This document shows, piece by piece, positions 1-11,638 of a stretch of 64,000 nt of DNA. Position 1 is the stretch's first letter. Every line of letters starts with the position of its first letter. A program made the position numbers and the translations under genes. The notes under the pieces are model-generated. The model was not told where the DNA came from, did not search any database, and saw nothing but the letters and a program-made list of their open reading frames with translations. Source of the DNA: Escherichia coli 042 (GTDB lineage: Bacteria; Pseudomonadota; Gammaproteobacteria; Enterobacterales; Enterobacteriaceae); NCBI RefSeq assembly GCF_000027125.1, contig NC_017626.1; one strand, given 5' to 3'.

Positions 1-520
1 GTACCCTGCGCCAACAGTAACTTTTGCACCAGAACCAGTGAAGATCACTCACCCGATTTCACTTCCCTGACGTCAGCCTGAACACGGCTGGCGTTTTCAT
101 TTATAAACAGAAAGGAAAAATGATGATGTCAGATACCACACTCTCCCGCCCGGAGGTGGTCAGCGGGCATACGGACGTTATCTATTCCACCTCAGTCTGC
201 CACATTCTGGCTGTACGAAAGAGTACACTGTTGCCAATCGACACAATTATCCGGCATCAAGTAAGCGATATCAGTTAACCGATATAGATGGGGAAGATGC
301 TTTTATCCGGATTGGTTCTATCGCGATGGTGCGAGTACCACTTGATGCAATGGCGCCTGTCGAGGAAGATGACGAGTAACAGAGCTCGGTATCTCAATCA
401 GGACCTGATTGTCCTGGTTCGATGCCGAAAACCAGTGATTTTTCGTGTTGGTATCTGTGTTGGTATAGGATGGTGTTGTTTATTATTAACAATTTTAAAT
501 CATGAGGTTAAATCGCATGT

Positions 521-541
521 TTGAGTCCGGCCTTCGCACCA
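521..541 (+). repeat. 21-bp sequence resembling the 3' end (T-arm/acceptor/CCA) of tRNA-Leu leuX; possible att-site direct repeat of a leuX-integrated island
   Basis: ttgagtccggccttcgcacca read directly; compared with recalled leuX 3' end CGAGTCCGGCCTTCGGCACCA (one G missing); no full tRNA upstream. Confidence 0.4.
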
Positions 542-929
542 CATCGTATGCAAATCGAGTCGCTCAAGGGCGGCTTTTTTTGTACCTGTGTTTTCACTAC
601 TTTGTTTGCATGTAACGCTGATAATCTAAGAACTTCGGAAGCCCCATTTCCATCAATGATGTTCATTCATCATCCTGAAAATTAAGTAGATATAAAACTT
701 CATTGCCTTGGTCTAATGGCACAGAAATAGATTGCATTTGGCGAGTGGCATTCTTAGTGCGTCGTTGTTTAGTCATGAAACGATGCGTAAAATTGCTGAT
801 TTTATGTGTCAAAGTCCCGCAACCGGAGATGGCCTTACTTCAATGATCAACCACTATTGACGTATCCTTTTAATATCTTGATTCAATTCAGCAGGTTATC
901 GTCCAAAGTACAGCGAAGAGAGAGAAAAG

Positions 930-3821
930 ATGATTGGTACAACACCTTATCATGCGAAATATTTTGCGCATGAACTTTCCATTCTTCATTCAAACAATGG
1001 GGTGGACCGTCTGTCTCAATCGCTGTTTGATGCAAGCGTAGATCTAAACCCTCATCAAATTGAGGCGGCTCTTTTTGCTATCGAAAATCCGCTAAGCAAA
1101 GGTGTTGTGCTTGCCGATGAAGTTGGTTTGGGTAAAACCATTGAAGCTGGACTAGTGCTTTGCCAGTTGTGGGCTGAAAGAAAACGTAAACTGTTGATCA
1201 TTTGTCCTGCTTCACTGCGTCGCCAATGGGCGAGCGAGTTACAGGAAAAGTTCAATCTACCTTCTCAGGTGTTGGACGCGAAAATGTATAGCCAGCTTCA
1301 AAAAGAAGGGATCCATAATCCCTTAAATAATAAATCGATCACTATCATGTCATACCACTATGCTGCTCGGTTAGAAGAGAAATTGGTGGCTGAAATGTGG
1401 GATCTGGTTGTTATCGACGAAGCCCATAAACTGCGTAATGCTCATCGAGAAAGCAACAAAATGGGGCAAGCGTTAAAGCGTGCGCTTGATGGGCGGAAGA
1501 AATTACTACTGACCGCAACGCCTTTACAGAACTCGTTGATGGAACTGTATGGCATGTCGACGCTTATAGATGAACATACCTTCGGCGAAGTTAAAGCGTT
1601 CAGAAAGCAATATATGCAGGCAGATAGCGATATTGCGGAGTTGAAGGGGCGATTGTCGCGTTTTATCAAACGAACTCTACGCAAGAATGTGCTGGAGTAT
1701 ATCAAGTATACAGAACGTAAAGCGATCACTATTCCTTTCTATCCGAGCGAACAGGAGCAGGATCTTTATGAACGCGTACAAAAATTGCTTGAACGTGAGG
1801 ATAGCTATGCCTTACCAAAACGACACCGGCATCTGACGGGGCTTATACTCAGAAAACTACTTTCCTCAAGTACGAAAGCCGTATTGAATAACTTGCAGAT
1901 CCTTAAGACTCGTTTAGAAAGGTTAAAGCTGGAAGGTATCGTTGAAGATGATATGGACATCATCCAACAGATCATAATGGATGATGATCTTGAAGATGAC
2001 ATCGTTGAAGATGCCGAATCAGTAGCGCCAGATACAGAGTGCAAATCTGTGGATTCAGATGCGCTTCAGGCAGAAATCAATGAGCTGGAATCACTCATTG
2101 TCAAAGCAGAACAGATTGGCACTGATACCAAATCAAAAGAGTTGCTTTCTGGCCTGGAGCAAGGTTTTGCACAGCTTGCCGAAATGGGGGCTGCAAAAAA
2201 AGTCATCATCTTCACGGAGTCGATGCGAACTCAACAGTACCTTGCACATTTTCTGGAAAACAATGGCTACCAGGGAAAAGTAGTAACCTTTAGTGGCACA
2301 AACAATACACCGCAGGCAAACAAGATCTACCAGCAATGGCGCGAGGAATATCAGGGATCTTCTCGTATTACCGGGTCGGCGCAAATTGATAAACGCTCGG
2401 CTTTGATCGACCACTTCAAAGATCATGCTGAAATCATGATAGCTACAGAAGCTGCAGCTGAAGGGGTGAACCTGCAATTTTGTTCGCTACTGATCAATTA
2501 CGATTTCCCCTGGAACCCACAACGCATTGAACAGCGTATTGGACGTTGTCACCGATACGGGCAAAAATTTGATGTGGTTGTTATTAACTTCCTCAATCAG
2601 CGAAACCAGGCCGATCAACGCGTTCTTGAACTCTTAACTGAAAAGTTCAGCCTGTTTGATGGCGTGTTTGGCGCATCGGATAGTGTGCTTGGCAGCATAG
2701 AAAATGGTGTGGATTTTGAAAAAAGGATCCAGTCAATTTATGAGTCATGCCGTACCCCCGAGGAGATAGAGCTGGCTTTTGAAAGGTTGCAGAAAGAGCT
2801 GGAAGATGAAATCAATCTCAAGATGCAGAAGACGCAAGAACAGTTGCTTGAGCATTTTGATGAAGATATTCACGATATCCTTAAAATAAGGCTTGATGAA
2901 GCTCGGGAGCGCCTGGATAAAGTCGGTCGTTGGTTTTGGGCCGTGACCTGTCAGCAGCTCAAACAATATGCTGATTTTGATCATGAGCATCATCGTTTCA
3001 CTTTACGTGAATCAGTCAATGAACTGCCTGTCGGGCAGTACCAGCTGTTGCGCAAAGATGGCAGGCAAAATAGTGCGTTACAAATGCAGGATCACCACAG
3101 TTTTGCATATCGGATCAATCATCCGCTGGGTGAGTACGTCATTGAGGGAGCCAAAGCCCAGGAGACGAAAACAGCTGAAGTCATCTTCGATTACAGTAAC
3201 CACACAACGAAAGTTTCGGTGGCTGAGCAGCTGAAAGGGCAATCAGGATGGTTAACACTAAATTTGCTTACTGTTGATGCGTTTAACAGGCAGCAATTTT
3301 TAGTCTTTACCGCGAAAACTGACAACGGACGTGTGGTAGATGGTGAAGCTTGTAAACGTCTGTTCAACTTGTCTGCAATAACCAACGAAAAGCTGGATAA
3401 TTCGGCAAGTTTAGATGCATTACCTGATGACTTGATCTTACTCAAGAACAGGCAAATTGACGCCAGGCTTGCAGAAGTTTTGGAGCAGAACTATGTCCTT
3501 TTTGAAGCGGAAAGAGATAAGCTGGAAAAATGGGCTGAAGACATGATCTTTGCGGCGGAAGAAGCATTACGCGATACCAAAATGCAAATCAAGTCGTTGA
3601 AGCGAGAAGCCAGGCTGGCGCAATCGATCGAAGAACAAAAGCAAAACCAGGAAAAGCTTAAGCTACTGGAACGGCAGCAGAAGCGTCAACGTATGGAAAT
3701 TTTTGACATTGAAGATGAGATCGCCGACAAGAGGGATGAACTCATCAGTGCCCTTGAAGAGCGGATGAAGCAAAAGACGGATATCACCGAGCTGTTTACC
3801 ATCCGCTGGAAAGTTATTTAA
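930..3821 (+). CDS. SNF2-family (SF2) helicase/ATPase with C-terminal charged coiled-coil-like region; gene 1 of candidate defence operon
   Basis: 963-aa ORF from ATG 930; motifs in translation: LADEVGLGKT (motif I), VVIDEAHKLRN (DEAH), LLLTATPLQN (motif III), QRIGRCHRYGQK (motif VI); C-terminal E/K/Q-rich region. Confidence 0.85.
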   Translation: MIGTTPYHAKYFAHELSILHSNNGVDRLSQSLFDASVDLNPHQIEAALFAIENPLSKGVVLADEVGLGKTIEAGLVLCQLWAERKRKLLIICPASLRRQWASELQEKFNLPSQVLDAKMYSQLQKEGIHNPLNNKSITIMSYHYAARLEEKLVAEMWDLVVIDEAHKLRNAHRESNKMGQALKRALDGRKKLLLTATPLQNSLMELYGMSTLIDEHTFGEVKAFRKQYMQADSDIAELKGRLSRFIKRTLRKNVLEYIKYTERKAITIPFYPSEQEQDLYERVQKLLEREDSYALPKRHRHLTGLILRKLLSSSTKAVLNNLQILKTRLERLKLEGIVEDDMDIIQQIIMDDDLEDDIVEDAESVAPDTECKSVDSDALQAEINELESLIVKAEQIGTDTKSKELLSGLEQGFAQLAEMGAAKKVIIFTESMRTQQYLAHFLENNGYQGKVVTFSGTNNTPQANKIYQQWREEYQGSSRITGSAQIDKRSALIDHFKDHAEIMIATEAAAEGVNLQFCSLLINYDFPWNPQRIEQRIGRCHRYGQKFDVVVINFLNQRNQADQRVLELLTEKFSLFDGVFGASDSVLGSIENGVDFEKRIQSIYESCRTPEEIELAFERLQKELEDEINLKMQKTQEQLLEHFDEDIHDILKIRLDEARERLDKVGRWFWAVTCQQLKQYADFDHEHHRFTLRESVNELPVGQYQLLRKDGRQNSALQMQDHHSFAYRINHPLGEYVIEGAKAQETKTAEVIFDYSNHTTKVSVAEQLKGQSGWLTLNLLTVDAFNRQQFLVFTAKTDNGRVVDGEACKRLFNLSAITNEKLDNSASLDALPDDLILLKNRQIDARLAEVLEQNYVLFEAERDKLEKWAEDMIFAAEEALRDTKMQIKSLKREARLAQSIEEQKQNQEKLKLLERQQKRQRMEIFDIEDEIADKRDELISALEERMKQKTDITELFTIRWKVI

Positions 3822-10678: not shown

Positions 10679-10990
10679 TATGATTTTCCTGATTAATGAA
10701 TTGATATCACGATAATTATATCATGAATAGATGTAAATTTACTATGTATATAAATTAATGTACAGTTCAACATGCTAATTATTTTTTAATTTGTAATGTC
10801 GATTGGTTAATAATTGGATTCTCTTATAATGAATATATATTTACTCTGACTAGAATATTTGTAAACGTGTTTTATATTGAGATTTTAAAATTGATTTATG
10901 GCTATGTACTCATAAATAATACTTTCGGTGTCAGAAAATACTTTATCTATTACATTTAAAATTCTAGGTGAAAGATATATAATGGTTACC

Positions 10991-11413
10991 TCACCCCCTA
11001 AAAAACTCTTTCCGATACCACTCTACAACCCCCTCAAAAGGGTAATTTTTACGCACCTGTGGCAACGCAATAATTTTTCCGTCAAAATCCCAGAATGACC
11101 TCTCAATGATCTCTCCGCCGTTTACCGCATCCAATACCAGTACCCGCATATTTTCATCCAGGCCAATCGTTCCTTTATCAAAGGCTTTATGATGTATCGC
11201 GCAAAGCGCCAGGCCATTGGGAATTTCACAAGGGCCACCATGTTGTTTCCATTTTATATGTGTCGCTTCCAGTGAGACGGTGGAGTTGCCGTAACAAATA
11301 TTAAAGCTACATATTGCGCACTGGTAGTTATAAGCGCGTAATACATGTTTGCGAAATAATGGGTCACGCTGCTTACGGATTTGCTGGAGAGCAAAAAAAG
11401 GCTCGTCAGCGAT
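10991..11413 (-). pseudogene. HNH endonuclease domain remnant, 5'-truncated (no in-frame start)
   Basis: hand translation of the reverse strand gives ...QCAICSFNICYGNSTVSLEATHIKWKQHGGPCEIPNGLALCAIHHKAFDKG... (CxxC plus H-N-H signature); open frame bounded upstream by a stop with no ATG; overlapping 76-aa ORF 11254-11484 is in another frame. Confidence 0.55.
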
Positions 11414-11638
11414 TTACTGGAAGCCATTGATATCCCTGGCAGTGAAATAATTGCGATCATGCTCGCAAATTTTCTGCGGTTCAAGCCTGCAAGCGAAGAT
11501 ATATTACCTTGATCTCATATGTTTTTTTACTTCCTGTGTGCCCTAATTGCCATGCGATGTTGCACCGACGCAAACCACCGTTTACGCCGGAGGAGTTAAA
11601 AGCGCTGATGGATGCGAATAAATCAAATTAATGAACGC

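Follow-up and report, generated by a model that had tools for sequence, protein, structure and literature searches.

The stretch of DNA analyzed here, referred to as the window, comprises 64,000 nucleotides of Escherichia coli 042 (NCBI RefSeq assembly GCF_000027125.1, contig NC_017626.1). Near its left end, between a short sequence resembling the 3' end of the tRNA gene leuX and the gene nanS, it carries an operon of three large genes, which encode an SNF2-type ATPase, a Mod-like DNA methyltransferase and a Res-like motor protein with a predicted nuclease domain. A small open reading frame (ORF), ORF100, and the remnants of two endonuclease genes lie between the operon and nanS. An earlier description made without database searches, the sequence-only reading, had placed a three-gene operon, a small ORF and an HNH remnant at this junction, and all of them are present. 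We explain the locus by three layers: an integrase-borne island that ends in an attR scar, a replaceable slot without an integrase and, as occupant of this slot, an operon predicted to encode a three-component, ATP-dependent restriction-modification (RM) system of the Type III-like kind. As a whole we consider this explanation quite probable.

The protein encoded by the first gene of the operon matched the PADLOC models DrmD (4.9e-198) and HmaA (2.5e-57), and its best sequence matches in the PDB were RapA proteins. The second gene was assigned the start codon ATG at 3842 by PGAP; an alternative TTG is located at 3827. Its product matched the PADLOC model MTase_III PDLC03646 over the full length with 1624 bits, 14 MTase_III models gave a match, and the PDB matches were Mbo45V, the Mod protein of H. 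pylori and EcoP15I Mod. The motif IDPPYNT precedes the motif DYFAGSGTT with the target-recognition region in between, which is the order of a beta-class Type III Mod. One stretch of the gene, 5007-6476, is either unalignable between alleles or retains only a short stretch with about 72% identity, while the flanking parts are 96-98% identical to the alleles of the strains A26 and E24377A. Such a pattern is usually the signature of specificity swapping.

The third protein matched one PADLOC family only, REase_III PDLC03654, again over the full length, and Pfam ResIII weakly. Sequence and profile searches against the PDB chains, EcoP15I Res included, gave no significant match, and Foldseek with a model of the protein returned only generic superfamily 2 (SF2) motors. 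The family comprises 2,492 clusters of 50% identity at E<=1e-3 and 783 at E<=1e-30, and for this large Mod-Res family there is no solved structure or published phenotype. In alignments of 70-131 homologues the Walker A motif, the DExH motif and the arginines of motif VI were invariant. The predicted nuclease residues are E975, P1023-D1024 and D1043-P-K1045; within the C-terminal domain E975, N1005, P1023-D1024, W1028 and P1044 were invariant, D1043 was nearly invariant (D or E, with Glu in the Halobacterium homologue) and the consensus was FxDPKG. An AlphaFold2 (AF2) model based on an alignment of 70 homologues showed an alpha-beta-beta-beta-alpha-beta topology at residues 973-1083; an earlier model from a 5-sequence alignment reached a pLDDT (predicted local distance difference test score) of 45 and was discarded. 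The protein combines an SF2 ATPase with a C-terminal PD-(D/E)xK domain, as a Type III Res subunit does. A fragment of 100 amino acids with 72% identity to the part encoded by 8908-9210 (residues 654-754) occurs in about 200 plasmids of Escherichia, Salmonella and Klebsiella, mostly conjugative, where it is annotated as 'DUF1158 domain-containing protein'. It is probably the fossil of a related system that was carried along with other plasmid DNA.

In the proposed mechanism Mod would methylate an adenine within a short, allele-specific site set by the swappable target-recognition region and would in this way mark self DNA. A complex of Mod and Res would recognise unmodified sites on incoming DNA, using ATP for long-range communication, and the Res-like SF2 motor-nuclease would together with Mod cut the unmethylated DNA via its C-terminal PD-(D/E)xK domain. 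The co-transcribed SNF2 protein, which is DrmD/RapA-like, would be an accessory translocase or remodeller of double-stranded DNA that assists or licenses restriction. Its help may consist in protein clearing, complex loading or cleavage gating, as proposed for helpers of the DrmD, BrxHII and ArmA type.

The similarities of the SNF2 protein allow a different assignment, in which the operon is of the DISARM, ARMADA or BREX-related (Hma) type, with the SNF2 protein as central effector and a DrmA- or YprA-like helicase as third protein. The SNF2 protein is closest to the DrmD, BrxHII and HmaA models, and ARMADA II and Druantia III, which occur at the leuX hotspot in O157 strains, show the same theme of an SNF2 protein and an adenine methyltransferase. 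However, the score against the NCBIfam model DISARM_DrmD_b (NF038318) was 664.7 bits, below the cut-off of 950, with profile positions 22-658 of 868 covered, and the protein is not a DrmD equivalog. No protein of the operon matched DrmB or DrmC, and PADLOC and Pfam found no DUF1998 or YprA-like match in any of them. The third protein in particular matched REase_III and no DrmA, DrmB, DrmC or Hma model, and according to Pfam it contains neither DUF1998 nor a phospholipase D (PLD) domain. The methyltransferase is Type III Mod-like by the 14 models and three Mod structures named above, and not PglX- or DrmMI-like. Finally, a gene for a DUF499 ATPase is missing from the locus, which has three large genes only, none of them coding for an AAA+/DUF499 protein. 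An assignment to one of these types is therefore very unlikely, and we keep to the Type III-like reading.

Features at the left end of the window. Positions refer to the window; the last column gives the evidence or a characteristic of the feature.
Feature	Position	Strand	Evidence or characteristic
Island right end	1-520	+	Annotation of identical genomes; last 20 nt of DUF957 gene, gene fragments 126-275 and 266-379
attR core, altered leuX 3' end (C>T at 522, one G deleted)	521-541	+	Same altered core at island end in loci L006-L009
leuX-type downstream flank, intrinsic terminator (hairpin 557-576, then T run)	542-590	+	Matches sequence after intact leuX
Non-coding operon leader, left cassette edge	591-929	+	Homology to DAX4 and SF-166 ends at ~583-590
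SNF2/RapA-type ATPase, DrmD-like, 963 aa	930-3821	+	Pfam SNF2-rel_dom, Helicase_C
Beta-class N6-adenine DNA methyltransferase, Type III Mod-like, 1034 aa	3842-6946	+	Pfam N6_N4_Mtase
Strain-variable methyltransferase stretch including target-recognition region	5007-6476	+	G+C minimum 0.30-0.34
Res-like subunit, 1126 aa	6949-10329	+	N-terminal helical region, SF2 DExH motor, C-terminal PD-(D/E)xK nuclease (predicted)
Perfect 15-bp-stem hairpin between convergent Res-like gene and ORF100	10341-10373		Sequence
ORF100, 100 codons	10376-10678	-	Accompanies operon on chromosome and strain I3 plasmid
AT-rich spacer, right cassette edge	10679-10986		DAX4 homology resumes at 10987
Phosphorothioated-DNA-binding (SBD-HNH type) restriction endonuclease gene remnant, C-terminal part only	10991-11413	-	428-bp internal deletion
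HNH endonuclease gene, last 105 nt	11527-11631	+	~570-bp internal deletion
nanS, intact, 326-codon ORF	11639-12619	-	97% identical to K-12 NanS

The SNF2 gene was detected in 151 of 5,426 E. coli genomes; this and the other genome counts vary with the coverage thresholds of megablast. The operon is present in about 3% of the complete E. coli genomes, among them the enterotoxigenic strain E24377A, and relatives are located on Klebsiella IncF plasmids. In DNA-level searches the only plasmid copy came from the RefSeq E. coli set. It belongs to strain I3, where a diverged operon lies between copies of the insertion sequences (IS) IS1 and IS5 with a truncated WYL regulator gene upstream; identity with the window is 80% over the SNF2 gene and the beginning of the Mod gene, and 96% from the 3' end of the Mod gene up to and including the restriction-gene remnant. 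In PLSDB a megablast search with 600-11000 recovered two records, both of a single 655-kb replicon, which matched over the last ~445 nt only (a fragment of ORF100 and the spacer), and the same search against phage records found no operon copy.

The long Mod-Res pair occurs in addition on plasmids of Klebsiella (IncF, 63% amino acid identity), Hymenobacter (37%) and Halobacterium (33%) and on metagenomic contigs. Sampling of about ten neighbourhoods of the Res-like family revealed that Mod is followed closely by Res at the E. coli, Klebsiella, Hymenobacter, Halobacterium and metagenomic loci, as in a two-gene Type III unit. The order SNF2-Mod-Res is found in E. coli, in Klebsiella and at locus P0010, the last two with a helix-turn-helix (HTH) gene upstream, and at P0020. 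At P0002 the order is Mod-Abi2-Res-SNF2. The linkage of SNF2 has outlasted this change of gene order, which argues for a functional partnership. No SNF2 gene is located beside Mod-Res in Hymenobacter, in Halobacterium, at P0040 or at P0120. The AAA ATPases encoded beside the Hymenobacter and Halobacterium pairs were considered as DUF499 partners and rejected; they are separate candidate defence genes (PDC-S68, PDC-S01).

The mobile triads carry a small regulator gene upstream of SNF2, either of the WYL type (I3 plasmid, L011 8723-8986) or of the HTH type (L012 2611-2856; L024 1760-1996), the latter hosted by the Klebsiella plasmid and by a metagenomic element. The chromosomal E. coli operon has a 339-nt non-coding leader instead. 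Neither six-frame reading nor tblastn with the Klebsiella HTH protein and the plasmid WYL fragment identified a regulator gene or its remnant in 591-929. The regulation of the chromosomal operon may differ from that of the mobile copies.

The combination of genes could point further, namely to a distinct class of ATP-dependent RM in which a long Type III-like Mod-Res pair needs a dedicated SNF2 third subunit, a proposal that we regard as tentative and rather doubtful. If it were true, the SNF2 protein could serve to gate cleavage, or to load or drive the complex where phage DNA is being replicated or is coated with proteins, and classical Type III enzymes would be linked mechanistically to the SNF2 helpers of the DISARM, ARMADA and BREX type. 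As SNF2 is a recurrent but optional partner, the family offers a simple genetic test of what an SNF2 helper contributes to restriction. The swappable specificity should shape strain-specific methylomes, barriers to the entry of plasmids and phages, and the outcome of phage therapy or transformation.

The repeat to the left of the operon was compared with the leuX gene of K-12, which was fetched for this purpose. The + strand of the window reads TTGAGTCCGGCCTTCGCACCA at 521-541, and leuX ends with GGTTCGAGTCCGGCCTTCGGCACCA. An exact 14-mer, GAGTCCGGCCTTCG, is common to both, as is the CACCA (5 nt) at the very end. The sequence-only reading had described the 21-mer as the leuX 3' end with one G missing; the comparison with K-12 confirmed the missing G and revealed a second difference that had been overlooked, a C>T exchange at 522. 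It had also stated that no tRNA body lies upstream, in agreement with ARAGORN, which predicted no tRNA there, and with Rfam, which detected no RNA family in 1-16000 at E<=1. The 21-mer is present once in the 64 kb. No other leuX-3'-like site was found in the window at <=4 errors, and a fuzzy search for the leuX 3' end over the whole window at <=5 errors yielded, beyond 523-541, only matches at chance level. The segment containing the 21-mer (440-540) occurs in 2,145 of the 5,426 E. coli genomes, almost always at one place per genome and at two at most, and thus not at many unrelated loci.

A chance or otherwise unrelated similarity to leuX would require no integration event, and two positions do differ from leuX with an exact common run of only 14 nt. 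We consider such a coincidence practically impossible. In shuffled sequences 0.01 matches were expected for the 21-mer, which lies exactly where the end of a CP4-type island meets a leuX-type terminator. The same terminator follows the intact leuX in A26 and DAX4, so that the empty-site comparison excludes the coincidence, and the other end of the island is bounded by leuX with an integrase. The sequence at 521-541 is a true attR, the displaced leuX 3' end left by a leuX-targeting integrase. In every other genome examined, islands of this type are closed by the altered core, the T and the missing G included; about 2,100 genomes carry it at the end of the island, and the DNA downstream of it varies among them. 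The two changes of the attR core relative to attL could have been present in the attP of the island or could have arisen once after integration. If they were already in attP, the crossover took place to the right of the missing G, and CACCA was the sole overlap. In the strains TKEC21-59 (L007 12079-12330) and WCHEC020031 (L008 12079-12330) 3-4 copies of TCGCACCT stand in tandem after the attR core; they duplicate the end of the core itself and are evidence of slippage at this site.

The island that ends at 520 can be traced in other genomes, since positions 1-12700 of the window are 100% identical to several complete genomes including STN0717-20. In STN0717-20 an intact leuX with an adjacent tyrosine integrase is located ~49 kb upstream, which bears out the earlier assignment of the repeat to a tRNA-targeting integrase; this leuX end of the island is not part of the window and was deduced from the identical genomes. 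According to the annotation of STN0717-20 the left half of the island is KpLE2-like (nanXY, fec operon), and the right half is CP4-type with a GTPase, Ag43, an antirestriction protein, YeeU/CbtA and DUF957. A tRNA-derived distal repeat, a proximal leuX with integrase and an empty-site allele (A26 and 34 further genomes) are all present. A P4-type tyrosine integrase would have put the ~49-kb KpLE2-type island into the 3' end of leuX and would have left 521-541 as attR. Near the right end of the island two copies of GTGTTGGTAT are located at 445-454 and 457-466, 12 nt apart, and an GGTTCGAT motif at 416-423 lies just inside this end. The GTGTTGGTAT pair and GGTTCGAT resemble the motifs TGTTGGTAC, GATGGTAT and GGTTCGAT of the integrase-proximal arm in K-12 and may represent candidate arm-binding sites of the integrase.

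With the attR in place it can be decided whether the operon belongs to this island. The sequence-only reading had left a choice between terminal cargo of a leuX island variant and a second islet inserted in tandem. The operon adjoins the island end and attR in 101 genomes, and both island and operon are below the G+C content of the core, as expected if the operon were the terminal cargo of the integrase-bearing island that ends in the window. Yet the operon is located outside the attR. In addition, a junction search identified 35 complete genomes in which leuX, the terminator and the operon follow each other without an island. In A26, which is one of them, an intact leuX comes after ahr; next to it are the terminator and the operon as in the window, then ORF100, the restriction-gene remnants and nanS, and neither an integrase nor an island is present. 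Conversely, in about 2,000 genomes the island end and the attR are those of the window but lead into other DNA. The 35 genomes with the operon only and the ~2,000 with the island end only demonstrate that island and operon are independent of each other. The first alternative is refuted by the operon-only genomes, and what remains of it is extremely improbable; a second islet in tandem is roughly right as a description, although unproven. The attR scar thus separates an integrase-borne island from an independently moving defence cassette, and proximity is not enough to assign genes as 'island cargo'.

The limits of the cassette, 591-10986 (10.4 kb), were derived from strain DAX4, whose homology to the window covers only 519-590 and the region from 10987 on. 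To the left the segment 542-590 closely matches the sequence after the intact leuX in A26 and DAX4, with scattered single-base differences. To the right the first remnant, which the sequence-only reading had not listed, derives from a gene that is of full length (873 bp) in DAX4 and in E24377A, in the latter downstream of the operon. The HNH gene is of full length (651 bp) in DAX4, TKEC21-59 and WCHEC020031. At the junctions of both deletions there is an overlap of 8-12 nt. Many genomes of this kind have nanS marked by RefSeq as an incomplete pseudogene (567 nt in strain 190693) despite the uninterrupted ORF in the window; this flag is probably an annotation artefact. The hairpin downstream of the Res-like gene is likely to be a bidirectional terminator, and ORF100 had no match in Pfam, PADLOC, NCBIfam or PHROGs.

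The cassette differs clearly in composition from its surroundings. The G+C content is 0.404 for the operon (930-10329), 0.395 for the whole cassette and 0.28 for 10330-10986. The flanks have 0.460 (1-520) and 0.444 (nanS to nanC), and the value for the core part, 16700-64000, is 0.511, with 0.485 as the lowest value of any 9.4-kb core stretch. The description of the locus as an AT-rich islet held in this windowed analysis, the operon being below both flanks. The G+C content at third codon positions (GC3) is 0.46 for the SNF2 gene, 0.32 for the methyltransferase gene and 0.38 for the Res-like gene, compared with 0.60 +/- 0.06 for 21 core ORFs. Because of the G+C content of 0.40 versus 0.51 and the GC3 values of 0.32-0.46 versus 0.60, the operon appears to be of foreign origin.

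Other strains carry different DNA at the same position. DAX4 contains a remnant of a Type I HsdR, IS1 copies and a broken mcrBC, and SF-166 an Eco31I-family RM system together with McrBC. The slot is nearly empty in TKEC21-59 and WCHEC020031, and in SK1144 an IS1-mediated deletion reaches into fim. Searches of the window for an integrase ORF, an att arm, bounding repeats or a second leuX repeat belonging to the cassette were negative, repeats over 1-12000 were restricted to short matches of the chance type, and no remnant of an att arm was found in 591-929. Lacking integrase, att arms and bounding repeats, the cassette is not an integrative element in its own right. In our explanation the sequence from 542 onwards would be what lay behind leuX before the insertion of the island, namely the leuX-type terminator and then the AT-rich cassette. 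The cassette would occupy a replaceable slot without an integrase, delimited by the terminator on the left and by the phosphorothioate-dependent restriction gene, the HNH gene and nanS on the right, and its cargo would be swapped by homologous recombination in the common flanks; an older island, since decayed, may have been the starting point. A smaller proposal, as tentative and doubtful as that of a distinct RM class, is that the fixed anchors, i.e. the leuX-type terminator and the phosphorothioate-dependent restriction gene, may act as landing pads for recombination like those of the hsd-mcr-mrr immigration control region.

Several points weigh against parts of this explanation. The proposed exchange by flanking homology is based on the common anchors only. 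In DAX4 the terminator of the 542-590 type is followed by the remnant of a P4-type att arm, a homologue of the integrase-proximal arm of K-12, and the terminator may accordingly not be native chromosome but the left tip that remains from an older island. Regarding the enzyme, K1045 is not invariant; the Halobacterium homologue has His at this position. SNF2 is missing from about half of the Mod-Res loci sampled, which argues that this protein is accessory and not a core component, and it may be dispensable. No activity, methylation motif or phage phenotype is on record for the operon, and literature searches, by SNF2 with Type III and DrmD and by RefSeq protein accession, yielded no description of the triad.

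The DAX4 arrangement leads to the remaining alternative, the second islet of the sequence-only reading taken at its word. According to it, the operon came as cargo with an older leuX island of the P4 type, inserted in tandem, whose integrase, att arm and attR have decayed and whose left tip is 542-590. Here the terminator, the K-12-like integrase-proximal arm and the restriction-gene remnants of DAX4, all without an integrase, fit well. TKEC21-59 and WCHEC020031 possess a second, diverged terminator and a P4-type arm after the attR, which shows that tandem accretion and decay of islands do occur at the leuX site. The locus is the published leuX-anchored defence hotspot #37, the best-known one in E. 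coli, and this hotspot often holds integrase-only or undetectable elements; the published figures are an occupancy of 97% of the isolates, 31 types of defence systems and 68% of cases without a detectable mobile element (Hochhauser et al. 2023, PMC10121019; reviewed in PMC12707154). However, neither the window nor A26 shows a remnant of the arm after the terminator, no integrase and no second leuX-3' repeat exist in the 64 kb at <=4 errors, and the cassette has no flanking repeats. Moreover, the right anchor is common to strains with unrelated cargo, for which cassette replacement is the better fit. We regard the decayed tandem island as a possible but less likely origin and prefer the replaceable slot.

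In about 180 genomes, AR435 (L016) among them, an IS66 element abuts a truncated ORF100 (window region 10556-10990). These genomes lack the operon and the attR as well as the right-hand portion of the island, and they have kept the same restriction and HNH remnants with their deletions; these lineages descend from an ancestor like the window.

The sequence-only reading had regarded this locus as the only insertion by which the window departs from the core gene content. This does not hold, as two IS1 copies are present and BrnT/BrnA replaces hsd-mcr-mrr. One IS1 copy (~15713-16483) is followed by a 171-nt fragment of a fimbrial gene and by gntP (~15713-16654 for the whole region). The nanC-gntP interval of the K-12 order, including fimB through fimA-fimD, is deleted in the window and likewise in STN0717-20 and 190693. 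Between yjiA and mdtM (~35608-37134), where K-12 carries the hsd-mcr-mrr immigration control region (hotspot #36), only the toxin-antitoxin pair BrnT/BrnA (~36558-37134) and a degenerate IS1 (~35608-36375) are located. The classical Type I and Type IV genes are thus absent from the immigration control region of this strain. At the end of the window near yjjV-yjjW, BLAST self-matches revealed a tandem array (63582-64000) with a period of 101 bp and at least 4 copies of 94-97% identity.

Compared with known elements, the island is closest to KpLE2 of K-12, with which it shares a P4-type integrase beside leuX and the fec and nanXY cargo. KpLE2 lacks the CP4-type right end (Ag43, YeeU/CbtA) that is retained in the window, and in K-12 the attR and the terminator have been lost together with the entire slot; the sequence common to both begins at 11636, apart from a 60-nt stretch at 11468-11527 with 87% identity. 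Pathogenicity islands at leuX, e.g. PAI II of strain 536, have tRNA-derived direct repeats, and the imperfect direct repeat from the tRNA 3' end is a feature in common with the window. With hotspot #37 the locus shares the place (leuX to nan/fim), the blend of an integrase island with defence genes lacking an element, and a turnover of restriction-type cargo between strains, which our genome comparisons confirmed. The hotspot was published as one interval. Here it splits into an attR-bounded island and a separate slot without integrase. A tRNA scar at the leuX hotspot was already known, and the island-plus-slot architecture refines the description. An SNF2-Mod-Res occupant is not named in the parts of the published description considered here.

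Among the defence systems, a DUF499 AAA+ ATPase is the defining component of the BR/Hma type, whose nuclease is usually fused to the SNF2 protein. The operon resembles this type as an RM-like triad in which an SNF2 helicase of the RapA/BrxHII kind is combined with an N6-adenine methyltransferase, but it is without DUF499 and its predicted nuclease is part of the separate Res-like motor. ARMADA II (armABCD), located on O-island 172 of O157:H7, consists of four genes, which encode the SNF2-type ArmA, the strain-variable adenine methyltransferase ArmB and a helicase-nuclease part; direct, non-abortive defence was reported in the paper on the YprA family. The pairing of an SNF2 protein with a strain-variable adenine methyltransferase is the same, whereas the operon lacks ArmC (YprA-family helicase, DUF1998) and the UvrD-like ArmD, and its methyltransferase is Mod-like and not PglX-like as ArmB. 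Class 1 DISARM (DrmD, DrmMI, DrmA, DrmB, DrmC) likewise has a DrmD-like SNF2 ATPase beside an adenine methyltransferase; the operon contains no DrmA, DrmB (DUF1998) or DrmC (PLD), and its methyltransferase belongs to another family. From the canonical two-gene Type III unit the operon differs by the additional co-transcribed SNF2 gene. Its subunits are much larger: the Mod protein has 1034 amino acids, compared with 644 in the EcoP15I Mod chain, and carries ~460 additional N-terminal and ~250 additional C-terminal residues. Its Res-like protein has no sequence-detectable similarity to EcoP15I Res. In architecture, i.e. the class of Mod, the layout of Res and the order Mod-Res, it fits the Type III RM systems represented by EcoP15I and EcoP1I.

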